Origin: a virus
Lineage: Duplodnaviria; Caudoviricetes
DNA length: 64,000 nt
Strand: one strand, 5' to 3'
IMG/VR virus record: IMGVR_UViG_3300006115_000009
Span: 1-64,000 of that record
The notes below the pieces were generated by a model. The model saw nothing but the letters and a program-made list of their open reading frames with translations. It had not been told where the DNA came from and made no database searches. Made by a program: the position numbers and the translations under genes. Positions 9,595 through 61,714 of the stretch are shown piece by piece; position 1 is the stretch's first letter, and each line of letters begins with the position of its first letter.

Positions 9595-11172
9595 TTAGAA
9601 CGTGGGCAGTGCCGAGGCGACTGAGTACTTGGTGACGTTGACTGTCACGTACTCGCCGAACGGAGACATGCGCAGGTTCACGGCAGCGTTAATTTGTCCA
9701 GCAGCAATTGTTGTGGGCGTGTTGATTTGAGTACCAGTGTTCACGCTGAAAGCATTCGTGGGCGTGTCGCCGTAGATGCTTCCGCGTGTCCAGTAACCCT
9801 GGCAAACGCCAGCAATTGCACCGTTCAACTTGGCAAAGATGTGGCCCTTGCCGTCGATTTCGTTGAAAACAAAGCCTTCAGCAACAATGTCAAGGTCCTT
9901 GATGACCTGCATGCGGAAACGCACGTTGTTGAGGTAGACCCAGTTGGGGTCCACGGCCGTCGAACGGAAACCGTAGATGCAGATGGTTCCAGTGTTGGGA
10001 ACAAGACGAATGACGTTGACGCCAGCGTTGTTCAGAGTCTGACGGTCGTTACCAGTTGTGCTGGTAGCGGGCCATGTCTGCGTCACGTTTGTGGCGTACA
10101 CCAAATTACCATTGTTGATACCAGCGGCAGGAACGTTGGCGTCGTTCTGTGTGTCGTTTGTGGCGCACTGAGCGGCAACAAAACCCGAAGGAGGTACTGT
10201 GCGGCTGAAAACGAATCCCGAGGTCTGAGAAGCGCTTGTAGCACCGATTCCGGGGATTGTGAGCCAAGGGGCGAAGATACCGGCGTATGAAGGGTCGGTA
10301 ACCGCAGCCTGAAGCGTAGTCACGGCAGAAATCAGCGTTGAGGCAGTGGCGGTGTTGGCACCGTCAAGGATGGCAACGCGGTTGAAAGTCGCGGCGTGGT
10401 TTGTCAAGTTGGCGTAAACAGTACCGCTGGTCGAACCAGGGAACGAAATCTGGCCGGGGCCGTAAACGTCGGTGAAGACGGCAAGCGCGGCAACAGAGTC
10501 GGCGTCAGCGGTGGCAACGTCCGTACCACCAGTGAGGTAGACGTTTACGGTCTGAGCAGTTGTCGACGGGAAGATTGTCGTACCTGACTGAGCAGAAGCA
10601 ACGCACATTGATTGGTAGGCGGGCAGCGAGTTGACCCAGTTAATAACGTCAGTGTCGTTACCGAGAGTAGGTGAAACAGCCAAAGTCTGACCGTTGTACG
10701 TAATTGTTGCGGTGGCAACAACTGTCGAGTTAACCGTGAAAGAGGTCAGTGTCAAAATAAGGCCGTTTGTCGAACCCGAAGCACTGTTAGCCCATGTACC
10801 AGCACCTTGAGCGGTCAGCAAGAACTTGCCCGAAGCGGTGGGTGACTTGGCGGTAACAGCGGTGCTCGAAACAACGCGTGAAACGTAGGCGTTGATTCCA
10901 CCCTCGCGGAAGAAAACGTCCAGCGAGTCGTACAGAAGCGTGCTGTCGATTGTGACAGAACCGGGTGTGACTGTGTAGCGACCAGTGATTTGGCCGTTGA
11001 CAGTCTGACCGAAGTACTTGTTGAAGTCGGCCATCGAGTTGATTGGAACGGCTACACCGGCAGGGCCCTGGGCTGTGCCGAGAACGAACCAAGTACCGGT
11101 GGACGCGTTGGTCTTGTTATTTGAAGTGCTGGCACTAACGTTAATGCTTACACCGGGGGCTGGATTAGCCAT
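9595..11172 (-). CDS. Contractile tail sheath protein
   Basis: 'PGVSINV' N-terminus, 'FFREGG...YVSRV', 'PPSGFVAA', 'LNNAGVNVIR', 'YLNNVR' sheath motifs. Confidence 0.93.
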   Translation of the reverse strand: MANPAPGVSINVSASTSNNKTNASTGTWFVLGTAQGPAGVAVPINSMADFNKYFGQTVNGQITGRYTVTPGSVTIDSTLLYDSLDVFFREGGINAYVSRVVSSTAVTAKSPTASGKFLLTAQGAGTWANSASGSTNGLILTLTSFTVNSTVVATATITYNGQTLAVSPTLGNDTDVINWVNSLPAYQSMCVASAQSGTTIFPSTTAQTVNVYLTGGTDVATADADSVAALAVFTDVYGPGQISFPGSTSGTVYANLTNHAATFNRVAILDGANTATASTLISAVTTLQAAVTDPSYAGIFAPWLTIPGIGATSASQTSGFVFSRTVPPSGFVAAQCATNDTQNDANVPAAGINNGNLVYATNVTQTWPATSTTGNDRQTLNNAGVNVIRLVPNTGTICIYGFRSTAVDPNWVYLNNVRFRMQVIKDLDIVAEGFVFNEIDGKGHIFAKLNGAIAGVCQGYWTRGSIYGDTPTNAFSVNTGTQINTPTTIAAGQINAAVNLRMSPFGEYVTVNVTKYSVASALPTF

Positions 11173-24868: not shown

Positions 24869-25294
24869 ATGGATAAATTCAACTGGATGGAAGAAGCGAC
24901 ATGCCGCGGTATGGACGTAAATATTTTTATGCCGGACGACGAGGGAAAGATTTCGTTGCCCAAGTTGCGTGCGGCGCAGAAAATATGCGCAGAGTGTCCA
25001 GTGAAGCAAGAGTGCCTACAATACGCAATCGACCTTGATATTACAGTTGGCATTTATGGCGGGATAAGTAACAAGGCTCGGCGTGAATACAAGAGCGGCA
25101 AGAAAAAAGCCACCTACAACAAGCCAGTCCGCAAGAAATCTTACGAAGAACTAAAGCATGGCACCATGAACGCTTACAGCCGTCACGGTTGCCGTTGTGA
25201 ACCCTGCAAGGAAGTTGCGCGTATTCACTGGCAGGAAATGGGAAAGAAAAACCGTCAAGCAGCACAGGCAAAAGCAAAGGAGTCAGCAGCATGA
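24869..25294 (+). CDS. whiB: WhiB-family Fe-S transcription factor with C-terminal HGT..CRC..C extension
   Basis: 'WMEEATCRG', 'ICAECPVKQECLQYA', 'GIYGG'. Confidence 0.9.
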   Translation: MDKFNWMEEATCRGMDVNIFMPDDEGKISLPKLRAAQKICAECPVKQECLQYAIDLDITVGIYGGISNKARREYKSGKKKATYNKPVRKKSYEELKHGTMNAYSRHGCRCEPCKEVARIHWQEMGKKNRQAAQAKAKESAA

Positions 25295-30538: not shown

Positions 30539-30545
30539 CCGGCGC

Positions 30546-30580
30546 GGATAACCGGCGCGGAAGTTGCGCGCCGGTTATCC
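30546..30580 (+). terminator. Perfect 14-bp hairpin
   Basis: GGATAACCGGCGCG-N7-CGCGCCGGTTATCC right after the stop codon. Confidence 0.65.
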
Positions 30581-30640
30581 GGTGGCGCGTGTCCGGCGCG
30601 CGTGTCCGTAATGGGCGCGCGCGCCGGTTGCGTGTCCGGC

Positions 30641-30822
30641 GCGACGTGGGCGCGTGGGCGCGCGACGTGGGCGCGTGGGCGCGTGGGCGCGTGGGCGCGT
30701 GGGCGCGTGGGCGCGTGGGCGCGCGACGTGGGCGCGTGGGCGCGTGGGCGCGTGGGCGCGTGGGCGCGTGGGCGCGTGGGCGCGTGGGCGCGTGGGCGCG
30801 CGACGTGGGCGCGTGGGCGCGT
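30641..30822. repeat. Tandem array (GGGCGCGT)n with interspersed GGGCGCGCGACGT variants
   Basis: About 20 units read directly. Confidence 0.95.
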
Positions 30823-30826
30823 GTCG

Positions 30827-30870
30827 TTGTCCACAACTTATCAACAAGTAATCCACAGGGCTGTGGATAA
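30827..30870. promoter_or_regulatory. Cluster of four DnaA boxes
   Basis: TTGTCCACA 30827, TTATCAACA 30838, TAATCCACA 30849, TGTGGATAA 30862 (reverse TTATCCACA); 11-bp spacing of the first three. Confidence 0.8.
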
Positions 30871-30960
30871 CCCTCGATCGGCCCCTATCGCGCCCGTGTA
30901 TGCGCGTGCGCCGAGAGCGTTTCAGGAAATTCCCCGTGTGCGCGATGTATTTCAGGGGTG

Positions 30961-31132
30961 GTCACGCGTGCGTAATCGCGCCCGTGTGCGCGTGCGCGCC
31001 CGTGTGCGCGTGCGCCTGCGCGCCCGTGTGCGTGCGTGCGTGTGCGCGCCATCGCGCGTATGCGTGCGCCTGCGTGTGCGCGTGTGCGCGCGTGCCATCG
31101 CGCGCGTGTGTGAGCGCGCGTGCGAGCGCGCG
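30961..31132. repeat. Degenerate (GTGCGC)n microsatellite
   Basis: Alternating purine-pyrimidine tract read directly. Confidence 0.85.
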
Positions 31133-31199
31133 ATAATTCTGTAAATACGCGCCACGCGTGAGAGAAATTTAGGGAATTGCCCGACGTGCGAATGTGTTC

Positions 31200-31400
31200 C
31201 TGGAAATCGCGCGCGTGTGTGAGGGAATTCCAGGAAATCCTCGCGTGTGTGCGTACACTACGCGCGGAGGCGCATCAGGAAATCGCGCAAGTGTGTGGGA
31301 AATCCTTTTTTTCCCGCGCGCAAACCCTTTTTTTACGCGTGCGCGCAACTCCTTTTTTTTCGCGCGCGTATGCGGGCAGCATTTTTTTTCGCGCGCGATA
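31200..31400. repeat. GGAAATC..CGTGTG iteron-like repeats and four T7-8 tracts separated by CGCG blocks
   Basis: GGAAAT-led copies near 30924, 31202, 31231, 31278, 31298; T-tracts near 31306, 31327, 31353, 31382. Confidence 0.65.
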
Positions 31401-31671: not shown

Positions 31672-31815
31672 AGTGTTCCTTTCACTTAGCGGGCTTGTCC
31701 CGCTGAAACCAGATTAACACAACGGCTCGCATCGCGCACGCGCGATTCGATCGGCCAGTGATATGCTGGATTTCGTCAGGGGGCAAGCCCCTGCCAATAC
31801 CCCAAGGGGATACTA

Positions 31816-31959
31816 ATGGCTTTCACTCAGCGACTTCAGGGCGACGTTTCAACCGGCAACGGAATGGGCGTAAACGCTTTCGGGCAAGAGGTGCGTATTG
31901 AGTTCTGCTGTCGGAACAACGCCGACGGCTACGACTGCGGTTGCGGAGAGGAGTGGTGA
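31816..31959 (+). CDS. 47-aa Cys-containing protein
   Basis: Cassette promoter and RBS; MAFTQRLQG...FCCRNNADGYDCGCGEEW. Confidence 0.65.
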   Translation: MAFTQRLQGDVSTGNGMGVNAFGQEVRIEFCCRNNADGYDCGCGEEW

Positions 31960-32058
31960 GAGGGGCAATCGCGCGCATACGCAATCGCGCCCGCGCGATG
32001 GAACCGGCTTAGTAATCTGTTGATGTAGTGATGTTGCTACCTTACGAAAGGATTTATT

Positions 32059-32157
32059 ATGTGCGAACACGGCGAGAAGTCATCAGAGCAGGTCTGCGGT
32101 ATCTGCTGGGGTGAGCCTACCCCCACCCTTGTCGCTCTCCTCGGTTGGGGGGAGTGA
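32059..32157 (+). CDS. 32-aa CxH..CxxC peptide
   Basis: Cassette promoter, GAAAGGA RBS; MCEHGEKSSEQVCGICWGEP... Confidence 0.55.
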   Translation: MCEHGEKSSEQVCGICWGEPTPTLVALLGWGE

Positions 32158-32502
32158 TGGGGGTCATCGCGCACGTGTACGCGTATGGGCGCGATGGTCA
32201 TCGTGTTTATGAAATCGTGCGCCCGCAAATGGTAAGTTCTCGGAAGCATTTCATAAAACGTTTGTGACGCAGATTTGTTTCATCGCGCTAAAAAAAATGC
32301 CTTATCGCTTTTCCACGCCCCGATTTGATTTTATCGCTATTTGGGGTAGGCGGACAGCAAGACTAAGGCATAACCCGAGGACGCAGTGCCGGTGGGCATA
32401 CCAACAGTGTAGCACAGGGGGAAGCATCGCGCTCGCGCGATTAGAAGCGTTTCTGGTATTCTGGTGGTGTTCCGGCGAAAGGCGTCGGGCGGAAAGGTAG
32501 TT

Positions 32503-32724
32503 ATGTCGGTTCCACGTCACCACCGCAACGCGGTCTTGGCTCAGTTGTTTGAGTTCCTTACTCTCGTTGTGGGTGCTATTACCCTTGTTCTCACTGAGAC
32601 TGTGTTGTTCTGGCAATACTCAGGCAACGAGTTCGGTGCGTTCCTGCTGTTCTTGCTGTTCTTCGTGGCCGGTGGGGTTCTCATCCCTATCATCGTAAAG
32701 CGGTTTAGGGCTCTGTTCCTGTAA
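32503..32724 (+). CDS. Small two-TM membrane protein
   Basis: Cassette promoter, GAAAGGT RBS; two hydrophobic segments. Confidence 0.7.
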   Translation: MSVPRHHRNAVLAQLFEFLTLVVGAITLVLTETVLFWQYSGNEFGAFLLFLLFFVAGGVLIPIIVKRFRALFL

Positions 32725-32880
32725 GGGGTCGGTGGGGTGGGTGGTCTAGGCCACCTGCCCCGCCGATTTTTTTGACCATTTGCCTATCGCGCCCGCTCGA
32801 TTATTGCGGGAATCGCGCGCCCTTACTTGGCAGCAACGCCAAAACATTTCATAAAAATCGCGCGTGAAGAAAGTATTTCG

Positions 32881-32930
32881 GAAAGCCGGCCACGTTTTCG
32901 CAAGACTTCCGCGTTCGTGACCGGCTTTCT
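32881..32930 (-). ncRNA. Candidate small structured RNA from the leftward side of the 32958 palindrome
   Basis: TACAAT -10; nested stems whose G-U wobbles work only on the minus strand. Confidence 0.45.
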
Positions 32931-33034
32931 ATTTCCATTGTAGCAAAGTCGGCTCTAATCGCGCTCGCGCGATTTGGACCGCTTCTGGTATTCTGGGGGG
33001 GCAAGGGGAGATGCCCCGAGCGAAAGGCAAGGCT

Positions 33035-33160
33035 ATGAACGGATACGACGAGCAGACACAGCGCATTCTCTCCAACCTTGAGGGCGTGGACTTCACCACC
33101 TTGAGTTTGTGGGAGTTCGAGGACTTGTTCGAGGACCGAGACCCCTTCGAGTTCATTTAG
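33035..33160 (+). CDS. 41-aa acidic peptide
   Basis: MNGYDEQTQRILSNLEGVDFTTLSLWEFEDLFEDRDPFEFI; cassette promoter and RBS. Confidence 0.65.
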   Translation: MNGYDEQTQRILSNLEGVDFTTLSLWEFEDLFEDRDPFEFI

Positions 33161-33275
33161 GCGGTGAGGGGCGGGGGCGCAAGCCCTCGCCCTTTATCCC
33201 CGCAACTCGTATCGCGCACGCGCGATTAGAACCGGATTTGTTATGCTGGGGGGGTAGCCAAACGAAAGGGAGATT

Positions 33276-33467
33276 ATGGCATACAGCGAGACAATAGAGA
33301 GCCGTAGGGGCGAGGTTCTAAAGGGCGCACAGATTACAGAGGTGCTAAAGGCTCACGGCTTAGGCATACAGGGGTTTGCGTCGTTCCTAGATGACATTGG
33401 CGGCCTAGAGGAATACAACGAGGGCGGCATCCTTTGGGAAGAACTGATGGGGTGGTTGGGCTACTAG
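33276..33467 (+). CDS. 63-aa acidic protein
   Basis: Cassette promoter and RBS. Confidence 0.7.
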   Translation: MAYSETIESRRGEVLKGAQITEVLKAHGLGIQGFASFLDDIGGLEEYNEGGILWEELMGWLGY

Positions 33468-33566
33468 CCCAATCACTTCACCCATCGCGCGTATACAGGT
33501 TCTTATCGCGCCCGCGCGATTTGGGGAGTTTTGTTATGCTGGAAACGTCAGAGAGAAAGGACACCA

Positions 33567-33770
33567 ATGAAACTGACACTGAGAGGCAAAAGGGTAGTTG
33601 TGTGGGGCGTTGCGCTGTTGGCGTATGCGCTGGCGTACTTCCACTTCGATAGCGAGATACCGCTAGACAACGTGGACGTTGTGCGTCAATGGGTGGCGGT
33701 CGGCCAGTCGCTACTAGTGGCGGTTCCGGTGCTGTTCGCCGGTGCTTACTTCGCAACACGGAAGGAGTAA
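33567..33770 (+). CDS. Small two-TM membrane protein
   Basis: GAAAGGA RBS; MKLTLRGKRVVVWGVALLAY... Confidence 0.7.
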   Translation: MKLTLRGKRVVVWGVALLAYALAYFHFDSEIPLDNVDVVRQWVAVGQSLLVAVPVLFAGAYFATRKE

Positions 33771-33859
33771 GCAGTACCCTTATCGCGCACGCGCGATTAG
33801 GGGGTCGCTGTGTTATTCTGGATTTGTCGGGGAGACGCCCCGCGGGAAAGGCAACAACA

Positions 33860-34132
33860 ATGGCAACACACACGAGCAACCGAGAGGCGTGGCGTTTCAT
33901 CGCCGAGCGCAAGCCGTTTCAGGGTAGCAACCTACGAGCGGAATACACGCTAGGGGACTACCTTATCTATTCCTACTCAACGCTAGTTGCATACATCGCT
34001 AAGACCGGCGAAACGTGGATTACGCCCGAGAAGTACAGCCAGACAACCGGACGGCACAAGTCGCACATTCGCCGAGGGTTCGAGGCGTACAAGGACAAGC
34101 ACGACACGCCCGAGAAGGTCGCAAGTCTGTAA
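33860..34132 (+). CDS. Phage early hypothetical protein (YSYxTLVA...YSQTTGRH type)
   Basis: Cassette promoter and RBS; motif pattern common in small phage proteins. Confidence 0.7.
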   Translation: MATHTSNREAWRFIAERKPFQGSNLRAEYTLGDYLIYSYSTLVAYIAKTGETWITPEKYSQTTGRHKSHIRRGFEAYKDKHDTPEKVASL

Positions 34133-34291
34133 GTCTGCTAGGGGTCGGGGTGGGTTGCCCTGCCCCCTAGCAACACCCCCCATCGCGCGTTTTGATTTCT
34201 ATACTCTTTCTTCCATCGCGCCCGCGCGATTTGAGCCGTCTGTGTTATTCTGGAAGCAACGGGGAAACGCCCCGAGGGAAAGGCAGGCATT

Positions 34292-34471
34292 ATGTCTGAA
34301 GCACGCACGTCGGTATTCCTCACCGACGTAAAGCCCGAGACGGTTTACGTCTCAGTTAGCCTAGAGGACGATTTGGTCGTTCTCGACCTTGACGGCCTCA
34401 CGGTTTATTCGCCGGTAGCGGTCATCAAGGAAGTTCTGGCTCAGGCTGCCGAGCGCAAGTTGGCCGAGTAG
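34292..34471 (+). CDS. 59-aa protein
   Basis: Cassette promoter and RBS; not in ORF track. Confidence 0.65.
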   Translation: MSEARTSVFLTDVKPETVYVSVSLEDDLVVLDLDGLTVYSPVAVIKEVLAQAAERKLAE

Positions 34472-34593
34472 TCCGAGGGTGGGTCGGGGGGAAACCCCCG
34501 ACCTAGCCCACCACTGCCATCGCGCCCGCGCGATAGAACCCGATTTGTTATGCTGGAAACGTAGGGGGCAAGCCTCTGCGGGAAAGGGTACAA

Positions 34594-34758
34594 ATGTACA
34601 GGTTAATTATTTGCAAGGACGGCTCTATTGAGTCGGAGGTCAAGTTCGACAACTATTCTTCGGCGGTGACGCTCTGTGAGCACCTTCGCCAGCAGGCTTG
34701 GAAGCACGAGGAAGTGGACTCGGAGTACTACGTCACTCGCACTGAAGTCGTGTATTAG
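34594..34758 (+). CDS. 54-aa protein
   Basis: Cassette promoter and RBS; not in ORF track. Confidence 0.65.
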   Translation: MYRLIICKDGSIESEVKFDNYSSAVTLCEHLRQQAWKHEEVDSEYYVTRTEVVY

Positions 34759-34914
34759 GAAAGGTCGGGGTGCAGTTTTGCCCCGCCCTTTTTTATCGCG
34801 CACGACTTTTCCCCATAATAGTCCAGTAATTTCTATCGCGCCCGCGCGATTCGGCCCTTGTTGGGCTAATCTGGGTGTGTTGCCGGAGACGCCGGCGACG
34901 TGGAAGGGGTTCCT

Positions 34915-35298
34915 ATGCTTACAGCAACTAAAGTTGTGGAAGCGGTCAAGGCTAATGGCGGTGTATCGCTGAACATTGACGGCGCAGCGCCCACTAGCGG
35001 TTTTATGGTGTCGCTGGGTGCTAAGTGGTCTTACGTTGCCAGCGCGGACGTGTTGGACGACATTGCCAGCGCCGTGAACGTTGTGGGCGGTTTTCTCAAC
35101 CGGCACAAAGTAGAGTTGTCCGCTAAGACTAACTATCTCGGTGCGTGGTTGTATGAAGGTCAGGTGTACCTAGACGTATCGGAATGCGTGAGCGACATTG
35201 ACGACGCGGTGAACGCCGGCATTGAACGTAATCAAATCGCAGTCTGGGACGTTGTCGCCGGTGCGGAAATCGCCACCGGCGGAAATGGGGAGGTGTGA
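34915..35298 (+). CDS. Phage hypothetical protein (GFMVS...YLGAW...YLDVS...QIAVWD)
   Basis: Cassette promoter; motif pattern recurrent in actinophage early genes. Confidence 0.72.
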   Translation: MLTATKVVEAVKANGGVSLNIDGAAPTSGFMVSLGAKWSYVASADVLDDIASAVNVVGGFLNRHKVELSAKTNYLGAWLYEGQVYLDVSECVSDIDDAVNAGIERNQIAVWDVVAGAEIATGGNGEV

Positions 35299-35638
35299 AT
35301 GCCCCAAATCCTAAATCGCGCACATATTAATCGCGCTCGCGCGATGGAGAAATCCAGCAAATCCCTAGTCGCGCGCGGCACGCCAGGAAAACTTTCATAA
35401 AAACTCCGTGATGAAAGTGTGTTTCTATGAGCGTCTTAGTCGCTCGCTTCGGCGTTCCCTGTTCTCCGGTGTCTAAGAACCTTACCGGCAGTGTCCGTTC
35501 TCACTGTTTGCTACATACCTTTCCTTCCCTCTGTTGCCAATAAGTATAAGCCAAATGTCCCATCGCGCTCGCGCGATTTAGGGATTTCTGGGCTATTCTG
35601 TTTGGGCAGGGGGAAACGCCCCCAGCGAAAGGAAAGAA

Positions 35639-36052
35639 ATGGCAACCATCAACCTAAAGGTGTCGAAGGCGAAACTCGTCTCGGCACTCGAAACCAAGTT
35701 AGAGCAAATCAAGACTAACAAGGCTAACGAAAAGAAGGCACTTCAGGTTCACGAGAAGGCTGTAGAGGCGTGGCGTAAGAAGGTCTTGGCGAGTATCCCC
35801 AAGACCCGAAAGCCGGACGAGTTCTCAGTCTGTACGCTCGGCTACGGCTCGTTCGCTGGCAAGACTAAGGTAGAAATCACCTACTACCTCGACAAAGCCC
35901 CCGAACGTCCTGAGAACGACGTGGAAGCGTTGCCGGACTACGCCTACCGCGAAACAGTGTCGGACATTGAGAGTGCGCTTCGTATCCTCGCCCTGAGCGA
36001 CGAGGAGACAGTCAGCACTAGCACCTACAAGTCTGTGGCTAAGTACCTTTAG
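35639..36052 (+). CDS. Hypothetical basic protein
   Basis: Cassette promoter and RBS, 137 aa. Confidence 0.75.
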   Translation: MATINLKVSKAKLVSALETKLEQIKTNKANEKKALQVHEKAVEAWRKKVLASIPKTRKPDEFSVCTLGYGSFAGKTKVEITYYLDKAPERPENDVEALPDYAYRETVSDIESALRILALSDEETVSTSTYKSVAKYL

Positions 36053-36187
36053 CCCAGCCAAAGGAGTGGGTCGGGGTTCTGCCCCGACCCACTCCGCCTT
36101 TCCCCCTAGGGCATCGCGCACGCGCGATTGGGGGGATTTCTGCTAATCTGGAGTTGTCGGGGGCAAGCCTCGACGGAAAGGGAAACA

Positions 36188-36319
36188 ATGGAAACCATCT
36201 GGCAGTCAGTATTGACAAGCGAGTTCGTATCGGGTCTCGACCCTGACAACTTGCCTTACCTTATCCGCGACTTGGAAAAGTCTGTGGAAGCAGTCTGCCG
36301 TGAGTGGGGGTTGCTCTAA
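36188..36319 (+). CDS. 43-aa protein
   Basis: Cassette promoter and RBS. Confidence 0.6.
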   Translation: METIWQSVLTSEFVSGLDPDNLPYLIRDLEKSVEAVCREWGLL

Positions 36320-36606
36320 TGGGTAGCCTTCACGCTCACGAGTTCGCAGAGTTGGCCGGCGAGGGGGTGATTAGCCTAGAGCAGTCTATCGCTGTTCATC
36401 TCACCAGCAACCACTATCCGCCCGTGCCAACGTCAATGGTGCCGGCCTGTATTCAGGCCATCGAAGCCTGTAACGAGGACGAAGCCGACCGCCTTATCGA
36501 CTTGCCCGACGGCGTGTTCTGGCGTCTGGGGGCAACGTCTGCGCCAGCGTGGGCAGTCGTTGAGGGGCATCACCTAGAGCCGTGGGTCTACTACGACGAG
36601 GACTGA
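36319..36606 (+). CDS. Phage hypothetical protein (HLxSNHYPPVP...HHLEPW)
   Basis: TAATG coupling; conserved-looking His motifs. Confidence 0.7.
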   Translation: MGSLHAHEFAELAGEGVISLEQSIAVHLTSNHYPPVPTSMVPACIQAIEACNEDEADRLIDLPDGVFWRLGATSAPAWAVVEGHHLEPWVYYDED

Positions 36607-36765
36607 GGGGTGGCGGGGCGAAAGCCCTGCCATTCCCCCCACCTAATCGCGCACGCGCGATAATCCAGTAATTGTGGGACAATAAACGTATCGCGCCCGC
36701 GCGATTTAGCAGTCTTTGGTGTATCATTGAGGTATCGGGGAAGCGCCCCGATAGGAAAGGAAGTT

Positions 36766-36981
36766 ATGGCAGAGCGTTCTGACGCACGAGTTAGCACCGA
36801 TATCCACTTGCGAGGTATCGAGACCGAAATTGAGGTCACCTACTACGACAACTTTGTCACTGTTGAGTTCGGCAACTGGCGCAACGGCACGACCAAGTTG
36901 TATCTGACCAAGGAGCAAGCACAACTGCTCTCCAACAAGATTGCCCAAACCGCCCTTGCGGATATCTACGCTGTAGCGTAG
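36766..36981 (+). CDS. 71-aa protein
   Basis: Cassette promoter and RBS. Confidence 0.7.
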   Translation: MAERSDARVSTDIHLRGIETEIEVTYYDNFVTVEFGNWRNGTTKLYLTKEQAQLLSNKIAQTALADIYAVA

Positions 36982-37103
36982 TCGGTGGGTGGGTCGGGGG
37001 AAACCCCGACCTACCTACTACCCCCCTATCGCGCCCGCGCGATTTAGGGTTCCCTGTGATACGCTGTTGGTGTTCCGGAGAAGCCGGAGCAGGAAAGGTA
37101 AGT

Positions 37104-37436
37104 ATGGAAGCAATTGAGATTACAGTTAAGACTTCTGTTAACGCACAGGAGTTCTGGGATGAAGTTACCGGCTGTGCTTGGGAAACGTGGGACTGGTGGA
37201 CTGGCGTTCACTTTGACTCTCCCCTCGGTGCGGAAATTGGTGCAATTAGCATCGACTACATCGACCCCGAGACCGACGAGGAGTGCGAGGAAACTCGTGT
37301 CATCACCATTCACGACTTGGTGTCGGCCTACGAGAAGGCGTCTGCGGCTCACTATATTGACTGGCAGAACCTCGACGCCTCGTCCGGTGACGTTATCTTC
37401 CAGTACGCCATCTTTGGCGAGGCCGTCTACGGCTAA
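37104..37436 (+). CDS. Acidic phage hypothetical protein (DASSGDVIFQYAIFGEAVYG)
   Basis: Cassette promoter and RBS. Confidence 0.72.
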   Translation: MEAIEITVKTSVNAQEFWDEVTGCAWETWDWWTGVHFDSPLGAEIGAISIDYIDPETDEECEETRVITIHDLVSAYEKASAAHYIDWQNLDASSGDVIFQYAIFGEAVYG

Positions 37437-37437
37437 T

Positions 37438-37453
37438 TGTTTCACGTGAAACA
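37438..37453. other. parS site (perfect chromosomal consensus)
   Basis: TGTTTCACGTGAAACA, one base after a stop codon. Confidence 0.85.
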
Positions 37454-37688
37454 TCTCCCCGGGGCCGGTTGGGTTGGCTGGCCCCGGGGATATTACCCCC
37501 CCCCATCGCGCGAGCGCGATAGGAATAGTCCAGGGATTTCCCTACGCGCGGATGCGGCTGCGCGCCACAAACGTTTTGGGAAAGTTCTGTGATGCGAATG
37601 TGTTTTTAACGCATCGCGCGCGCGCGATTAGACCAGTGATTTGGTATGCTGGGTGTGTTCCGGAAACGCCGGCACAAGAAAGGTAGAA

Positions 37689-38102
37689 ATGGGTCTCGAC
37701 CAATACGCATACAAGGTGGATGCTAATCCACTAAACACCGACTTCTCGTTTGAGCGTGAGGATGACGAGGGTGTCACCATCTACAGCGAAATCGCCTACT
37801 GGCGTAAGCACCCCAACCTTCAGGGCTTTATGGAAGCCCTGTGGAACCACAAGCGCATCGAACAGCCCAACAACGGCGTGGATGAGGACGCTTGGTTTAA
37901 CTGCCAGCCGGTTCGCCTCACCCTAGAGGACTTGGCCGACTTGGAGAAGTGCGTCAAGAACAAGTTGCTTCCCAGCACCACTGGCTTCTTCTTCGGTGAT
38001 GACGGAGACGATTATTACAAGAAGGATGACCTTAAGTTCATTAAACAGGCTCGTAGTGCCATCAAGGACGGCTACGAGGTCTATTATGATAGTTGGTGGT
38101 AA
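37689..38102 (+). CDS. Phage hypothetical protein (MGLDQY...YWRKHPNLQGFM)
   Basis: Cassette promoter and RBS. Confidence 0.75.
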   Translation: MGLDQYAYKVDANPLNTDFSFEREDDEGVTIYSEIAYWRKHPNLQGFMEALWNHKRIEQPNNGVDEDAWFNCQPVRLTLEDLADLEKCVKNKLLPSTTGFFFGDDGDDYYKKDDLKFIKQARSAIKDGYEVYYDSWW

Positions 38103-38258
38103 CCATACTGACGGCTAGTTTGCGGCCGTCACAGGGCGTTCTAGGGGTCTCTCAGAGGCTTCTAGAACGCCCACCTTTCCAACCATCGCGCACGCGCGAT
38201 TGGGAAGGTTTCTGTTATTCTGGTTTCGGCGGGGAAAAGCCCCCCAAGAAAGGTAAGT

Positions 38259-38570
38259 ATGCCAACTTTACAGCAATACATTGAGGCGTGTGAGGAAACC
38301 GCACCAGAGGGCGCCGTTGTCGCTTTCTACAACAACGACCCTTATTGGGCAACGTATGAGAAGGCCGACGTCGACGACTTTCGGCGCTCACTAGAGGACA
38401 GTTATCGGGGAGCGTATGACAGCGGTGAGGAATACGCTGAGGAGTTGACTAGTCAGTATTACATCATCCCCGATGGTTTGGAAGCGTACATTGACTACGA
38501 AAGTATGTGGACTGATATGCGTTATGGGGGCGCTTGGTTCGTTGACGGCTACGTCTTTGTTCCCTGCTGA
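38259..38570 (+). CDS. ArdA-like acidic antirestriction protein (C-terminal-domain type)
   Basis: Highly acidic; 'YRGAYDSGEEYAEE...IPDGLEAYIDYESMWTD' resembles ArdA C-terminus. Confidence 0.6.
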   Translation: MPTLQQYIEACEETAPEGAVVAFYNNDPYWATYEKADVDDFRRSLEDSYRGAYDSGEEYAEELTSQYYIIPDGLEAYIDYESMWTDMRYGGAWFVDGYVFVPC

Positions 38571-38685
38571 GCCGGCCGGTCTCGAAGTTTGAGGCCGGTG
38601 GCTTCTATCGCGCCCGCGCGATTGGGGAGACGTTTGGTAATCTGGGTTCGCAAGGGGAAACGCCCCGAGCAAGAAAGGAAACACA

Positions 38686-38952
38686 GTGGCAACGCAATAC
38701 GCAGTGACCCTAGATTTGGGCAACCTAAAGGGCCCAGACGGAAACGCCTTGTCTATCGTGGCTAAGGCTAAGTCAGCACTAAGTCAGTTGGGCGAGTCTC
38801 GTCAAGAGATTGACAACTTTATCAGTGAGGCACTTAGCGGTGACTACGACCACGTTATCGAGACTGTGCGCAGTCGCTTCCACTACGTCACTTGGACTGG
38901 CTACAGTCTGGGCGAGGACAGTGGGGATGAGTGGGATGATGACGATGAGTGA
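38686..38952 (+). CDS. Hypothetical protein (GPDGNALSI...SGDYDH)
   Basis: GTG start, cassette promoter and RBS. Confidence 0.7.
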   Translation: MATQYAVTLDLGNLKGPDGNALSIVAKAKSALSQLGESRQEIDNFISEALSGDYDHVIETVRSRFHYVTWTGYSLGEDSGDEWDDDDE

Positions 38953-39091
38953 GGGGCTGTCGGAATACGAACGCCTTTTGCTCATTGAGAACCTAAGAGA
39001 CTTGCGTGGTCGTATCGGCAACGATGCCAACGAGCAACTGGCTACGGCTATCGGGTCGCTTATCTGGTCTATAGGTGGCGGAGATGAGTAA
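38945..39091 (+). CDS. 48-aa protein
   Basis: Overlap-coupled. Confidence 0.55.
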   Translation: MSEGLSEYERLLLIENLRDLRGRIGNDANEQLATAIGSLIWSIGGGDE

Positions 39092-39371
39092 GTACGTTTA
39101 TCAGGCAAGGGTAGTGCTGGAGTTCTTTGTTGAGGCTACCAGCGCCGAGGAAGTCGAACCAGCGGTTCAGGTCTTTATGAACCACATAGCCGAGGCCGAC
39201 CAGTTACTAGAAAGCCCCTATTCTTGGGAGTTTGCCGACTGGCAGATAACCGAGGTGGCCGATGAGGACGAACTTGGCGAGTGCGACACCTGTGGAAAGT
39301 CGTATGATTTGGCTAGTCGTGACGGCCGGTGCGGAGACTGTGGCAACTGCTCCGACCACTGTACCGATTAG
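39084..39371 (+). CDS. Acidic protein with C-terminal Cys cluster
   Basis: 'CDTC...CGDCGNCSDHC'. Confidence 0.65.
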   Translation: MSKYVYQARVVLEFFVEATSAEEVEPAVQVFMNHIAEADQLLESPYSWEFADWQITEVADEDELGECDTCGKSYDLASRDGRCGDCGNCSDHCTD

Positions 39372-39482
39372 CCGGTGGCTACCCCGAAGTTTGGGGTAGT
39401 TGCCACCCATCGCGCCCGCGCGATTAGGGGATTTGTTGATACACTGTTGGCATACCGGAAACGCCGGTTAGGAAAGGAAACA

Positions 39483-39773
39483 ATGTCGGAACACGAACAC
39501 AACCACGAGGGCTTCATCATCAACGAGAAGGAGTTTGAGTTGCTGGGCGGTGCTGTCTTGCTGGCTACGGCAGGTGCTTACGTTGAGTGGCAGGCTGACG
39601 AGAACGACTTGGCACTTCAGTTTATTGCCAACGACTACCGCGACCTGCTCAACAAGTTGGCACCTTACTCAAATATCATCCAGTCAACTTTCACTAGCGA
39701 CGAGTTCACTCGGAACATCAACAAGCAGATTGAGGAACGCAAGGCGCAGAAAGCGCAAGAAGCGCAGGGTTAG
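39483..39773 (+). CDS. Hypothetical protein
   Basis: Cassette promoter and RBS. Confidence 0.7.
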   Translation: MSEHEHNHEGFIINEKEFELLGGAVLLATAGAYVEWQADENDLALQFIANDYRDLLNKLAPYSNIIQSTFTSDEFTRNINKQIEERKAQKAQEAQG

Positions 39774-39897
39774 CCGGTGCGACAGGGTGGGGAAACCCAC
39801 CCTGTCGTATCCCCCGAACATATCGCGCGCGCGCGATTTGGGGAACCAACTGATACGCTGTTTGTGTGCCGGAAACGCCGACACGGAAAGGGATGAA

Positions 39898-40785
39898 ATG
39901 AACGCCTACGAAGTAGTGGCCCAGACGATTATTGACCAACTCGCAGAAGGTACCGCACCTTGGCGTAAGGAGTGGGTGGCGAGTGGATACGTGCCTAAGT
40001 CGCTGTCCTCACGCAAGCGGTACAACGGCATTAACCACTGGCTTCTGTCGTTCTCCGCATATGCCAAGGGCTACAACTCGCCTTGGTGGGGTACGTACAA
40101 GCAGATTACCGAACTTGGTGGCAACGTCATCAAGGGCGAGAAGGGTACGCCGGTAGTTCTGTGGCGTCAGTTGGAGACCGAGGACGCCGACGGCAAGCCC
40201 AAGAAGGCAGTGGTGATGCGTTACTTCACTGTCTTTAACGCCGAACAAGCGGAATGGGAGAAGGGAGCGCCCAAGTACGAAGCGCCGTTCTCTCGCCCAG
40301 ACTTCGAAATTATCGAAGGTGCTCAGCGAGTTGTAGGGGATTACTTCGGGCGAGAGGGTGCGCCTAAGTTGTCGTATGACGGAGATAGGGCTTTCTACTC
40401 GCCGTTGACCGATAGCATCACGTTGCCCGAGCGAACCAAGTTCACTACCGACCACGGCTTCTACGCCACTTCTTTCCACGAGATTGCCCACTCAACTGGT
40501 CACAAGAACCGGCTCAACCGAGAGGGTGTCGTTGAGGGTCACGGCTTCGGTTCGGCACGCTACTCAGAGGAAGAGTTGGTGGCAGAGTTCACCGCTGCTT
40601 TCCTGTCCGCCGAGACTGGCATTCTGCCAGAAACGCTGGACAACTCAGCGTCCTACGTGGCGAGTTGGTACAAGGTGCTTAAGAACGACCCGAAGTTGTT
40701 GGTCAAGGCAGTGGCACGAGCACAGAAGTCGGCGGACTACGTGCTGAACCGCAAGGCAACCGAGACCGAGGGGGCGGTGGAGTAA
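39898..40785 (+). CDS. ardC: ArdC-like antirestriction protein (ssDNA-binding N-domain plus zincin-like domain)
   Basis: 'APWRKEW', 'YNGINHWLL', 'WGTYKQ...KGEKG', 'YFTVFNAEQ', 'AFYSP..D.ITLP', 'HEIAHSTGH', 'YSEEELVAE'. Confidence 0.88.
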   Translation: MNAYEVVAQTIIDQLAEGTAPWRKEWVASGYVPKSLSSRKRYNGINHWLLSFSAYAKGYNSPWWGTYKQITELGGNVIKGEKGTPVVLWRQLETEDADGKPKKAVVMRYFTVFNAEQAEWEKGAPKYEAPFSRPDFEIIEGAQRVVGDYFGREGAPKLSYDGDRAFYSPLTDSITLPERTKFTTDHGFYATSFHEIAHSTGHKNRLNREGVVEGHGFGSARYSEEELVAEFTAAFLSAETGILPETLDNSASYVASWYKVLKNDPKLLVKAVARAQKSADYVLNRKATETEGAVE

Positions 40786-40990
40786 TCCACCGCTTTCCCC
40801 CAATCGCGCACGCGCGATGGCGGCGTCAATAAATCCTAAAGAAACGCGCGGGCGGCACGACCTCGGAAAAGTTTCACAAAAACTTCGTGTCGAAAGAGTA
40901 TTTCGCGTATCGCGCCCGCGCGATTTTCGGGGGTTATGTTATTCTTGTATTGGTTGGGAAAGCCCTGGCCAAATTTAGATAGGAGTAAAT

Positions 40991-41311
40991 ATGTGTGAAG
41001 AGACAGAACCAAAGGAGTTCACTAGCAACGAGTTGGTGTATATCGCTAAAGATGGCGGTTATGGTGATGCTATCGGTATGTTGTTACTAGACCCCCGAAC
41101 GATTGGTGAGGGCGGACTGGAGCAACTTAACAATGCTGTTCGAAACGGAGAGAGTCTGTGGGAGTTTGTTCTGCGTCAACACGACGAGGGTAATGCTATC
41201 CAGGCAGGCGTGCACGTTATTTATGAGAACGGATACGTCTTTGGCGGGGACTTCTTTAAGCAGATACCGGCCGTCCTGAGCAAACTCAACCCCGAGTTGT
41301 TCCCTAGTTAA
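40991..41311 (+). CDS. Hypothetical protein
   Basis: Cassette promoter, AGGAG RBS. Confidence 0.7.
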   Translation: MCEETEPKEFTSNELVYIAKDGGYGDAIGMLLLDPRTIGEGGLEQLNNAVRNGESLWEFVLRQHDEGNAIQAGVHVIYENGYVFGGDFFKQIPAVLSKLNPELFPS

Positions 41312-41432
41312 TAGGTATCCCCTGAGTAATTCAGGGGAGACCTATGGCATCGCGCGCGCGCGATTAGACCCCGAAATGCTACACTGGATTTGTCGAGGAG
41401 ATGCCTCGGCAGGTATGAAAGGAAACAAACCT

Positions 41433-41702
41433 ATGGGCAAGCCCCAAGCAGTACCGGAAGTAATCTGGCAGGAACCGCCAGTAGCAACTAAAAACTCACG
41501 CAAGGGAAACGGCAAGTACGCACTCATTGAGTTGTCGCTACGTGCCAACCCCGGCCAGTGGGCTTTGGTTCAGGAGAGCGAGAAGTCCGTTGGTGGACTG
41601 CCTCGCTTCGCAGGCCCCGACTTCGAGCGTGCGTACCGCACAGTTCGAGAGGGTATCCGAACCTTCAACCGCTACTACGTTCGCTTCGTCGGGCGTAAGT
41701 AG
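41433..41702 (+). CDS. Small basic protein (LRANPGQWALV), possible DNA-binding
   Basis: Cassette promoter, GAAAGGA RBS. Confidence 0.65.
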   Translation: MGKPQAVPEVIWQEPPVATKNSRKGNGKYALIELSLRANPGQWALVQESEKSVGGLPRFAGPDFERAYRTVREGIRTFNRYYVRFVGRK

Positions 41703-41977
41703 CGAAAGGTCAGGCTGTTAAAGGGTACCTTTCCCCGCCCACCGCAACTCTCTAGCAGGGTTGCGGTGGGTCAGCCGCTTCTCTATTTTTTTGTGGCCGA
41801 TACCATCGCGCTCGCGCGATAGTTCAGGCATTTGCTAATGTGGTGTATCGCGCTGGCGCGAGGCGAATTTCAGGAAATTTCTGATATGGTTTGGGTATCG
41901 CGCCCGCGCGATTAGGGGGTCTATCCCCTACACTGGATACGTCGAGGGAAACGCCCCCGACAACGAAAGGAAAGAAT

Positions 41978-42706
41978 ATGCCGTATAACAACAACACAGG
42001 TCTGCCACTCGCACAGTGCTGGCAGGACTTCCACGATGTATTGGACGCCGGTATTAACAAGGTCGTTCTCTACGGCCCCCCCGGTACTGGCAAGACCTAC
42101 GCCGGTCTCACCTACGGACTGGGTGACCGACCAGCGTTCCGTCTCCCTTGTACTGAGGATATGACGGACAGCGAGGTTCGTGGTGCTTGGATGCCCAGCG
42201 AGACTGGTGCGTTTGTCTGGCACAACGGACAGGGTACTAGGGCGTGGGCTACCGGCGGTCGCTTGGTCGTGGACGAGGTAGACCGAGCCAGCGGTGACGT
42301 TCTGTCGCTTCTGCTTGCCTACACCGACAGCGAGGCTTCGGCTTCGGTGGACTTGCCTACCGGCGAGACTATCCGACCCTATGACGGCTTCTCGGCTATC
42401 CTGACTTCCAATATCGAAAGTCCTGATGACTTGCCGACAGCGTTGCGTGACCGCTTTCCGGTTGCCCTGAACATTAACGTTCCGCACCCCGAAGCGTTGA
42501 TGACGTTGCCCGAACACTTGCGGACTGTCGCTACGGCGGTAGTGTCTGCCGAGCCTCACCGCCGAGCGTCGTTGCGAGCGTTCTACGCCTACGACACGCT
42601 TATCAAGGGCGGTCTGTCGCAAGAGCGTTCGGCAGAACTCACGTTCGGCAAGGTACGTGCCGAGGCGATTATCGAAGCACTGCGCTTCGGTCGCTTGGGA
42701 GCGTAG
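41978..42706 (+). CDS. MoxR/CbbQ/CobS-type AAA+ ATPase
   Basis: GPPGTGKT Walker A, 'LVVDEVDRAS' Walker B, 'ALRDRF' sensor. Confidence 0.9.
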   Translation: MPYNNNTGLPLAQCWQDFHDVLDAGINKVVLYGPPGTGKTYAGLTYGLGDRPAFRLPCTEDMTDSEVRGAWMPSETGAFVWHNGQGTRAWATGGRLVVDEVDRASGDVLSLLLAYTDSEASASVDLPTGETIRPYDGFSAILTSNIESPDDLPTALRDRFPVALNINVPHPEALMTLPEHLRTVATAVVSAEPHRRASLRAFYAYDTLIKGGLSQERSAELTFGKVRAEAIIEALRFGRLGA

Positions 42707-42707
42707 T

Positions 42708-42723
42708 TGTTTCACGTGAAACA
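42708..42723. other. parS site (perfect chromosomal consensus)
   Basis: TGTTTCACGTGAAACA, one base after a stop codon. Confidence 0.85.
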
Positions 42724-42865
42724 ATGGTCGGTAGGGGCGGTGGTAACACACCGCCCCTGCCTACCAGCCACCCAGCCCTAATCGCGCCCGCGCGATTTGG
42801 GGGGTTCTGGGCTACAATGGATACGTACCGGAAACGCCGGTACATCAGTGAAAGGGAATATCACT

Positions 42866-44302
42866 ATGGCAACAAAGAAGCAAGAGATAACTAACGTTAT
42901 CTATCCAGAGTTGGTGGAAGCACTGCGCAAGGACACCGAGGGAGTACAGACGTGGAAAGTCCGAGCCGGTGGCTCAAGCCGAGGGGAAGCCTTTACCGAC
43001 TTCGGTACTCACACTATCCAAGTGCCGTTCGGCAACGAGGACGCGGTGCGGTTGGTGCGAGCGCACGAACTCGCTCACACTCGCATTAGCCCTACCGACC
43101 ACGAGGCGTTAGCAGAGTGGGCGGAGTTTAACGGAATATCTGACCGAGTATTATCTTGCGCCGAGGAGTGGCGAGTTAATGCCGTTGTCGGCAAACTTGG
43201 CTACGACCTCGACCTACTTGCGGACGGCACAGAGAGCGCACTAGGCAAGCGTATTGCCGAGACCAATACGCCCGAAGCCTTTAACGAGATGGTGGCTTTC
43301 GGTGCTGGCTTGGTCGGTACTAAGGCGTTTAACGCCTACAAGCGTGGGGTGAACTCCGTGAACAAGGAGTGGGCTACTGTTCTGGGCGAGTTGTCGAAGC
43401 AGGTTAAGAAAGTTGTTAACAAGTACGATACTGTTCGCAATATCGGAGACACCGAGTTAATCCACTTTAAGTCGGACAGTGACACTACCTTGCCACGTGG
43501 CTTTATCAACTACACCGGCAAGGTGGCGGAGATTATCGCTAGTTTCCAGCGTCCTATCTCTCAGGACGAGAGCAAGGGGTCTAGTGGCGTGAACTACGAC
43601 ACCGGCTTTCAGGCAGGTCAGTTCGCACCGCTAAAGGTGGACACAGTTCACCGCCCAGACAAGCAGGTTAAGGGTCACTTGGCTAAGAAGCGTATCTACT
43701 CGACGAGTGGCAAGGCGGTTCGCAACGCCTCTCGCCTACTTACCGACCCCCAGAAGCGTATCTTTTCACGGAAAGTTCGTGCCAACGGCGGTATTGTTGT
43801 AATCGACTTGTCTGGCTCAATGGATTTGTCTAGCGACCAACTCGACCAACTGCTCGACGCAAGCCCCGGTGCGCTGGTCGTGGGCTACACTCACGGCAAG
43901 AAAGTGGCTCACAAGCCTAACTTCTGGGTGCTGGCGGAGAAGGGCAAGCGTATTAGCGACTTGTCTAAGGTTGGTGGCAATATCGGCAACGGCGTGGACG
44001 GCCCAGCGTTGGAGTGGGCTATCGCTCACCGCCGAGGTAGCGAGCCGATTATCTGGGTCTGCGACGGACAGGTGACGGACAGTCAGGACAAGGCTTTCAC
44101 GCTGGGTGCGTATCTCTGCGCTCAAATGATGATTAAGCACCGCATTATCCAACAGCCGACTGTTGAGGGTGCTATCAAGGTCTTGTCTAATCCCAGCAGT
44201 GCTAAGTCCGAATACGCTGGTCGTGTGTCGTACTTTATCCCAGCAAGTCGGAACTACAACGCTACCTACGTCGCTAAATACAAGGACGGCTACGCCGAGT
44301 AG
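42866..44302 (+). CDS. HExxH metallopeptidase-like plus vWA domain protein (CobT-like AAA partner)
   Basis: 'RAHELAH' N-terminal; MIDAS 'IDLSGSM', later 'VCDG'. Confidence 0.82.
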   Translation: MATKKQEITNVIYPELVEALRKDTEGVQTWKVRAGGSSRGEAFTDFGTHTIQVPFGNEDAVRLVRAHELAHTRISPTDHEALAEWAEFNGISDRVLSCAEEWRVNAVVGKLGYDLDLLADGTESALGKRIAETNTPEAFNEMVAFGAGLVGTKAFNAYKRGVNSVNKEWATVLGELSKQVKKVVNKYDTVRNIGDTELIHFKSDSDTTLPRGFINYTGKVAEIIASFQRPISQDESKGSSGVNYDTGFQAGQFAPLKVDTVHRPDKQVKGHLAKKRIYSTSGKAVRNASRLLTDPQKRIFSRKVRANGGIVVIDLSGSMDLSSDQLDQLLDASPGALVVGYTHGKKVAHKPNFWVLAEKGKRISDLSKVGGNIGNGVDGPALEWAIAHRRGSEPIIWVCDGQVTDSQDKAFTLGAYLCAQMMIKHRIIQQPTVEGAIKVLSNPSSAKSEYAGRVSYFIPASRNYNATYVAKYKDGYAE

Positions 44303-44842
44303 CACAAGGTCAGGAGATTAAAGGGTTCACCCTTTCCCCCGCCCCACTCACCGGCTTCGGCTGGTGGGTGGGGTTCTCCGCTTCCCCCATATCGCGCGGG
44401 CGCGATGAGTAATTCTAGAACTACCTAGTAATCGCGCTGGCGCGATGGCCACATATCGCGCATAAAAAACGCCTGGGCGCAGTAGGTCGAGGAGAAAGTT
44501 TCATAAAATCTCTGTGACAGAAATGTATTTTTGACGACGTGGCCGACGTCGATGCCATCGCGCGGGCGCCATCACAACGTATCGCGTTAAAGAAACGCCC
44601 GGATGTGGCCGCGAAGGGCCAGACGTTTACTGAAAATGCCTGTGAAAAAAGTGTATTTTAAACCTTATTAACTACTCATTAATGACAATAAGGTACATTA
44701 AGGGTTAGTTACTGTAGGGTTTGTGGCCTTAAAAGTACACATACGCGCGTGAAATCGCATTTAGACAGGCGAAAACGGCATACTTTTCTCCCCAAACATC
44801 AATAATTGCTTGGAAGATGTAGGGGAAAGGTACTTTCCGGTA

Positions 44843-49599: not shown

Positions 49600-49968
49600 T
49601 CATACTTTCTGTTTTGCTCGACGACTCTGCAAGCATTCTTTGCAGGCCGCTTGACCGCGTTTGCGGTGCATGTGATAACCACGCGTCGTTCCGTGAGGAA
49701 TGTCGGGGTCTTGAATTGGCTTGAAGTATGCGTTCATCAAACGCTCGGGCGTAGGCTTGGGGAAGCCTGCTTTTTTGCGCAATACTTGTCGCTCGTCTGG
49801 CGTGGTGCCCGCCCAAATGTCGTATTCCTCATGCTCGATAGCGTGCTTCAAGCATTCTTCCCGCACCGGGCAGGCACCACACAGACTTGCTATTTCGGGG
49901 GTAACTTCCTTAACCAGAAAGTTAACGCCAGAATCACGACAAATGGCTTTCTTGGCCCAACCCCACAT
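49600..49968 (-). CDS. whiB: WhiB-family transcription factor with HGT..C..C extension
   Basis: 'WAKKAICRD', 'LCGACPVREECLKHA', 'IWAGTTPDER'. Confidence 0.88.
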   Translation of the reverse strand: MWGWAKKAICRDSGVNFLVKEVTPEIASLCGACPVREECLKHAIEHEEYDIWAGTTPDERQVLRKKAGFPKPTPERLMNAYFKPIQDPDIPHGTTRGYHMHRKRGQAACKECLQSRRAKQKV

Positions 49969-61423: not shown

Positions 61424-61714
61424 ATGGCTGAGTTTTTGTCTCAGTTCATAACAAGACCTAAATTTTACAAACGCGCTGCGTGCAAGGGTATGGGGTTTAA
61501 CGACTTTTTTCCGGGGCGGGGTCAGTCTGGATTAGTACAGAAATCCATCAAAGTTTGCGAAAACTGTCCTGTGCGTTTTGACTGCTTTGACTATTCGCTT
61601 ACCGAAAAGATTGAGTATGGCGTATGGGGTGGAACGACGCCAGAACAACGCCTTGAAGTTACATCACTTGGACTAGACACGGAGTCTGCGTGGCAGCACC
61701 TAAATCTAGAATAA
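61424..61714 (+). CDS. whiB: WhiB-family transcription factor
   Basis: 'FYKRAACKG', 'VCENCPVRFDCFDY', 'GVWGGTTPEQR'. Confidence 0.9.
   Translation: MAEFLSQFITRPKFYKRAACKGMGFNDFFPGRGQSGLVQKSIKVCENCPVRFDCFDYSLTEKIEYGVWGGTTPEQRLEVTSLGLDTESAWQHLNLE

Follow-up and report, generated by a model that had tools for sequence, protein, structure and literature searches.

Two chromosomal-type parS sites in the early region of a metagenomic phage that lacks recognizable partition genes

The stretch of DNA considered here (the window) comprises 64,000 nucleotides, positions 1 to 64,000 of the IMG/VR virus record IMGVR_UViG_3300006115_000009 (Duplodnaviria; Caudoviricetes). The complete record is a genome of 78,902 bp (terminal repeats, 120 bp; CheckV completeness, 100%), and its structural genes (sheath, tape measure, major capsid protein, portal and TerL) identify a contractile-tailed phage. 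Within an array of early-gene cassettes, the window contains two exact copies of the 16-mer TGTTTCACGTGAAACA, both of which match the consensus TGTTNCACGTGAAACA of the chromosomal-type parS palindrome, the site bound by ParB, at 16 of 16 positions. These 16-mers are best explained as genuine host-type parS sites that have been kept by selection on a phage apparently devoid of partition genes. The two sites are the following.

37438..37453, no strand: parS site 1, exact TGTTTCACGTGAAACA, retained by the phage copies of five further samples (99.9-100% identity)
42708..42723, no strand: parS site 2, exact TGTTTCACGTGAAACA, kept in L128 (99.07% identity, another sample)

Both sites share the same immediate context. 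At site 1 the stop codon TAA (37434-37436) is followed by a single T and then by parS, and at site 2 the stop codon TAG (42704-42706) is likewise followed by a single T and parS. The first-pass annotation of this sequence had reported two exact sites at 37438 and 42708, both with a single base between stop codon and parS, and had judged the pair unlikely to be a product of chance; all of this is borne out by the search of the window and the genome. No further copies are present in the window at ≤3 mismatches or in the complete genome at ≤1 mismatch, and a first-order Markov model of the 78.9 kb predicts 6.3e-5 exact copies per genome, compared with the 2 observed. The stretch shared between the sites is limited to ~17 nucleotides; the flanks are unrelated and do not align, which argues against a recent segmental duplication. 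As the upstream genes are unrelated as well, the two sites are, judged by their surroundings, separate placements. All other copies of the phage that were recovered are 99.07-100% identical to it and keep the sites, an identity that is uninformative on conservation.

Searches of the complete genome in six frames with hidden Markov models (HMMs) gave no match at E <= 1 to ParB_N, HTH_ParB, AAA_31 or CbiA and detected neither a tyrosine integrase nor a serine recombinase, and on the basis of these searches a phage-encoded ParB, ParA or integrase was rejected. The first-pass annotation had seen no parAB in view, and had named a phage ParB that is cognate to the sites and encoded elsewhere as a finding that could fully explain them; the genome-wide search for parA and parB extends its statement to the entire phage. 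A self-encoded parABS cassette of the type known from P1, N15 or mycobacteriophages, with a parA-parB operon beside parS, was likewise not found in the genome. The phage thus looks virulent, with a lytic lifestyle and without an integration module, though a divergent module is conceivable.

The phage is far removed from cultured relatives. Neither megablast nor blastn gave a nucleotide match of the region in INPHARED, and for the 478-amino-acid protein encoded next to site 2 there was no match by tblastn against INPHARED and no relative in a single-protein scan of IMG/VR. TerL is ~33% identical to that of known phages, a distance from which no cultured relative or host can be derived. The gene content is more telling. 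Three separate genes of the WhiB family are present (24884-25087 on the plus strand, 49783-49959 on the minus strand and 61469-61654 on the plus strand), relatives of the phage carry genes for WhiB and for Rpf-like transglycosylases, and nearly all of the closest cellular RecA proteins (53-60% identity) belong to Actinomycetota, with members of the Ilumatobacteraceae and the Acidimicrobiales ranking first. On the basis of the WhiB genes, the Rpf-like transglycosylases of the relatives and the RecA affinity, the predicted host is actinobacterial.

As candidate host genomes we took the twelve whose RecA is closest to that of the phage, and scored these for parS. The exact 16-mer or a form with one mismatch is present in 8 of the 12, at 1-5 sites per 1.7-5.4 Mb and mostly in tight clusters; one metagenome-assembled genome of the Ilumatobacteraceae has three exact parS within 100 bp. 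Both the exact form and the variant TGTTCCACGTGAAACA occur as tight chromosomal clusters in genomes of Ilumatobacteraceae, Acidimicrobiales and Microbacteriaceae. The phage sites therefore share their 16 bp with the chromosomal system of Actinobacteria and Firmicutes, in which parS, ParB with cytidine triphosphate (CTP) and SMC loading act together. They differ from it in being located on a virus without an encoded ParB and in their density, which is ~25 sites per Mb compared with roughly 1 per Mb in the host-lineage genomes.

Chromosomal-type parS is not restricted to this phage. At least 119 IMG/VR contigs (L004-L122) contain the exact site, compared with 2 for a reversed control palindrome, an over-representation of at least 60-fold. 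ParB_N was lacking in 48 of 50 parS-bearing records that were checked, whereas WhiB was present in 3 of the 50, and among the matches listed at least 17 of 80 contigs have two to five copies. Some contigs have dense arrays, e.g. 5 copies in ~0.8-0.9 kb (L024 and L063), and 3-4 copies are found in L009, L023, L067, L073 and L075. One multi-site record of 16 kb with inverted terminal repeats resembles a small podovirus and would fit a phi29-like phage. Sample 3300045988 contains a large group of phage contigs of 15-18.6 kb (e.g. L067, L077, L230-L287) with conserved parS, several of which have inverted terminal repeats; in L067, matches to capsid, tail and a packaging ATPase of ~340 amino acids fit a small podovirus that is possibly phi29-like. 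Three actinophage-like records that encode WhiB, G010 (L029), G021 (L047) and G026 (L055), each have an exact parS; no ParB_N was found in G010 and G021, and G026 has only a sub-threshold ParB_N-like match that is broken by a TGA codon. A composite pattern of parS, 35-65 nucleotides and ATCGCGC was also tried and rejected as too unspecific in IMG/VR and metagenomes, with the full CG palindrome described below present in no locus among the matches listed.

Relatives of the phage were found through RecA and protein clusters. On the basis of RecA homologues with 62-81% identity, the phage belongs to a family of metagenomic phages of 50-84 kb, and 49 IMG/VR records of this family were scanned for parS at ≤2 mismatches (the contigs P0006, P0015 and P0019, which represent complete relatives, lie outside this set). 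The only match among them is G077, a genome of 78,430 bp with terminal repeats that is rated complete, and whose TerL and major capsid protein are 74% and 69% identical to those of the phage. It carries two sites of the variant form TGTTCCACGTGAAACA (15/16), 874 bp apart within its own CG-palindrome early array, and the pair brackets a DUF3846 gene. One site has the order TAG-A-parS after a gene of 95 amino acids and is followed by a hairpin, two perfect DnaA boxes (26 bp off) and a T9 run; the other site is located inside a cassette gene of 96 amino acids. Over both phages, placement one nucleotide after a stop codon and before a hairpin is thus seen in 3 of 4 sites. The sites are not orthologous to those of the phage in the window, as the AAA_5 gene of G077 lies at a distance of 5 kb and is not followed by parS.

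No parS-like site was found in those members of the CG-palindrome clade in which the AAA_5 region is covered (G054, G059/G062, L123/L124 and L127). The survey of parS in related phages that the first-pass annotation had proposed therefore has a divided outcome, with two variant sites in G077 and none in most relatives. Our data suggest that parS has probably been gained more than once, or has moved between cassettes, in this phage family, and such repeated gain or movement speaks for selection rather than for plain inheritance or a chance event.

G077 has a further feature of its own. Between 8089 and 16895 (L216) there are eight copies of the LexA/SOS-box-like palindrome CGAACNNNNGTTCG, five of which are within GC-rich terminator hairpins of cassettes while three adjoin the perfect DnaA-box pair at 16829/16841, and the general form GAAC-N4-GTTC occurs 11 times compared with 1.1 expected. 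For the phage in the window an SOS-box enrichment was rejected (3 GAAC-N4-GTTC, 1.2 expected).

The surroundings of the two sites comprise the following features.

31731..44572, plus strand: early-gene cassette array with 33 CG palindromes, contains both parS sites
37104..37436, plus strand: gene of 110 amino acids without homologue and without Pfam match (ORFan), TAA stop one base before site 1
37456..37490, plus strand: GC-rich terminator-like hairpin directly after site 1; segment 37434-37504 folds at -37.4 kcal/mol
37505..37520, plus strand: CG palindrome ATCGCGCNNGCGCGAT, heads the region after site 1
38259..38570, plus strand: ArdA-like anti-restriction gene, between the sites
39535..40785, plus strand: ArdC-like gene (ArdcN and zincin peptidase), between the sites; the true start is probably inside the open reading frame
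41978..42706, plus strand: AAA_5 (MoxR-like) ATPase gene, TAG stop one base before site 2
42726..42765, plus strand: GC-rich terminator-like hairpin directly after site 2; segment at -41.8 kcal/mol, z = -5.2
42781..42796, plus strand: CG palindrome heading the cassette of the 478-amino-acid gene after site 2
30827..30870, no strand: cluster of DnaA boxes within an origin-like block of repeats; distances to the two parS sites, 6.6 kb and 11.9 kb

Of the 33 copies of the palindrome ATCGCGCNNGCGCGAT at 31731-44572 (0.35 expected), nearly all head small, self-contained cassettes that follow a common plan: ATCGCGCNNGCGCGAT, 16-17 nucleotides, a -10-like hexamer, a short hairpin in the 5' untranslated region (UTR), a ribosome-binding site of the form GAAAGG, the gene itself and, at the end, a terminator hairpin rich in GC. 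The spacing of 16-17 nucleotides between palindrome and hexamer likewise holds for nearly all copies. The motif is common to the relatives G054, G059/G062, G060, G077, L123 and L127; it does not occur in G053 (RecA identity, 80%). The 5.3-kb stretch between the two parS sites holds the ArdA-like and ArdC-like anti-restriction genes together with several ORFans; ArdA-like, ArdC-like and, in G077 (10601-10990), DUF3846 genes in the early array form a set of the kind that typifies anti-defence leading regions in conjugative plasmids. Two independent short contigs, L129 and L130, come from a strain whose 478-amino-acid protein is 88% identical to the one encoded here; both end, within their first 25 bases, in the terminator hairpin just downstream of the expected site 2, and assemblies seem to break at this hairpin.

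In most cassettes the terminator hairpin lies directly at the stop codon, and at the two sites parS intervenes. In an alignment the AAA_5 stop codon of the relatives runs directly into the hairpin, which makes parS an extra element of ~17 nucleotides in this lineage. A link of parS to one particular gene was considered and rejected: the three genes that precede a stop codon, one nucleotide and parS are unrelated, and the 110-amino-acid gene has no homologues. Folded as RNA, parS itself gives a hairpin of only -3.9 kcal/mol, and 17 of 200 shuffled sequences fold as well; the G077 variant forms no such hairpin in its minimum-energy fold. In these folds parS is therefore not a stable, conserved stem-loop of the kind expected for a terminator or an element of the 3'-UTR, and the true terminator hairpin follows separately. 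We count the weakness of the RNA hairpin, and its loss in the G077 variant, in favor of recognition by host ParB.

The first-pass annotation had placed DnaA boxes about 7 kb from parS, and a cluster is indeed located at 30827-30870, 6.6 kb from site 1. It consists of one perfect box and three with one mismatch within 44 bp, while over the window as a whole DnaA-type boxes are not above chance (10 compared with 10.1 expected). The cluster forms part of an origin-like block (30540-31400), in which long tandem repeats of the GGGCGCGT type are followed by the DnaA boxes, GC-rich imperfect repeats and several T7-T8 tracts. DnaA-box clusters are present across the phage family, including relatives without parS. 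The suggestion that the region is an oriC mimic finds some support in G077, where parS is 26 bp from perfect DnaA boxes, but is weakened by the clusters in relatives that lack parS. These clusters fit a family-wide origin better than an oriC mimic or decoy, with parS as an optional add-on.

Recruitment of host ParB is most likely the role of the two sites. After injection, host chromosomal ParB would be loaded at the parS sites in the form of a CTP clamp and spread from there across the early region, with the result that the phage DNA would be handled like origin-proximal chromosome. By analogy with phi29, the DNA would then be positioned and inherited with the host segrosome, which could be of benefit if lytic growth proceeds slowly or stalls, for example during a carrier or pseudolysogenic state in slow-growing hosts. 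We lean, with moderate confidence, towards this sequence of events, in which ParB loads at both sites, spreads over the early region and brings as its likeliest pay-off positioning or inheritance in a slow or stalled infection. The proposal of the first-pass annotation that incoming DNA recruits host ParB is thereby retained in part: the host-type sites, the lack of phage ParA and ParB in the HMM searches, the predicted actinobacterial host, the same sites in candidate host genomes and the recurrence of parS in G077 all point to it, while the binding itself is what we infer from them.

Several systems provide a precedent. According to the account in PMC2731898 (citing Meijer et al. 2005), phi29 has five host-type parS sites that are bound by host Spo0J, which segregates the phage genome into the prespore. 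Similar to the virulent Bacillus phages phi29 and Nf, where the phage has no ParB and several copies of the host chromosomal parS, those of phi29 being bound by Spo0J/ParB (as outlined in PMC2731898), the phage described here has no recognizable ParB or ParA of its own, several host-type parS sites and a seemingly lytic lifestyle, with no tyrosine or serine recombinase detected in six frames. In contrast, phi29 is a 19-kb podovirus with protein-primed replication and a spore-forming Firmicute host, in which parS and Spo0A boxes serve entrapment in the spore (PMC2731898), whereas our phage is a 79-kb myovirus-like phage predicted to infect Actinomycetota, in which the two sites lie close to DnaA boxes within an array of early cassettes and a link to sporulation is not evident. 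Extrachromosomal prophages of mycobacteriophages maintain their DNA by self-encoded ParA and ParB with phage-specific parS repeats (PMC7157519); both strategies are based on ParB and parS (here by prediction), but the phage in the window encodes neither protein and has the host chromosomal consensus. SGI1 hijacks the parABS system of IncC plasmids via its own parS (PMC10954446) and is thus similarly a mobile element with a cis site only that depends on the ParA and ParB of another replicon, as we predict here. It differs in being an integrative mobilisable element of Gammaproteobacteria with a plasmid-type parS, and is neither a phage nor a carrier of the chromosomal consensus. In the literature searched we found no description of chromosomal-type parS on actinophages. 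The principle is not new, as phi29 already follows it and many viral contigs show it again, and the phage described here adds one more case from a group of phage and host that is new to it.

Several observations weigh against recruitment of host ParB for positioning or inheritance. Most relatives in which the early region is covered (G054, G059/G062, L123/L124, L127 and L125/L126) have no parS, which marks it as a dispensable, accessory trait, and the copies of the phage, at 99-100% identity, offer no divergence over which conservation of parS could be gauged. The candidate hosts are probably not spore-formers, and the rationale from phi29 is therefore not directly transferable. Moreover, no repressor or maintenance module that would indicate a carrier state was identified in the phage. 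A more far-reaching version, in which the phage mimics oriC and persists as an episome by host factors only, with DnaA firing the origin, ParB and ParA providing partition and, in G077, LexA repressing early genes via the SOS-box-like palindromes, appears quite doubtful to us.

In two phages parS and DnaA boxes occur together in the early region, with a distance of 26 bp between them in G077, and the neighborhood contains many genes for host takeover and anti-restriction (ArdA, ArdC, DUF3846), which could also reflect titration. Replicating phage parS would then soak up host ParB, and so SMC loading, while the DnaA boxes soak up DnaA, disrupting segregation, initiation and division for takeover. 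We regard such a decoy as rather unlikely, with only two sites per genome, most relatives managing without parS, and DnaA-box clusters that occur family-wide, even where parS is lacking, and fit a replication origin better. Alternatively, the sites may have nothing to do with ParB and may represent a hairpin in the 3'-UTR, as RNA or DNA, or an operator of a phage regulator, with a coincidental identity to parS. The site is a 7-2-7 palindrome, not unlike the 33 CG palindromes of the array, and the fixed placement after a stop codon and one nucleotide, before the terminator, in 3 of 4 sites hints at a role in transcription or at the RNA level. A role unrelated to ParB is nevertheless unlikely, considering that a 16/16 match to parS is improbable at about the 1e-5 level per site and occurs twice, that the G077 variant is a natural form of parS that weakens the hairpin, that one G077 site lies within coding sequence and that the RNA hairpin reaches merely -3.9 kcal/mol.

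The position of the sites around the anti-restriction genes offers another possibility, in which ParB clamps coat the 5.3-kb cluster and shield it against nucleases or SMC-type restriction (MksBEFG/Wadjet-like), or modulate early transcription. The sites bracket ArdA and ArdC here and the DUF3846 cassette in G077, and 3 of 4 are within a transcription unit, between stop codon and terminator. These points are matters of context, no precedent for parS as an anti-defence element was found in the literature searched and canonical ParB silences transcription only weakly; we consider shielding or insulation quite improbable. The patchy distribution of parS among relatives, the shuffled order of the cassettes and the near clonality of the phage population would also be compatible with functionless passengers, that is, recently captured patches of host origin-proximal DNA or of cassettes from other phages. 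This we find very improbable, because the sites share only ~17 nucleotides amid unrelated flanking genes, because two phages have two sites each and because of the strong enrichment of parS among viral contigs.

Should host ParB indeed load at these sites, the strategy of phi29 would extend to large phages of environmental Actinomycetota that are probably non-sporulating. Together with the enrichment of parS in viral contigs, nearly always without ParB, this would suggest that many phages borrow the host segrosome and that the strategy is under-studied. Should the episomal version hold true, it would amount to a plasmid-like lysogeny without a phage-encoded integrase, repressor or ParA and ParB. 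The phage and G077 form a compact pair for testing, as there are two sites that can easily be scrambled and a sister lineage that has placed parS elsewhere. Borrowing of the host segrosome is also relevant to pseudolysogeny and to carrier states of natural hosts that grow slowly.

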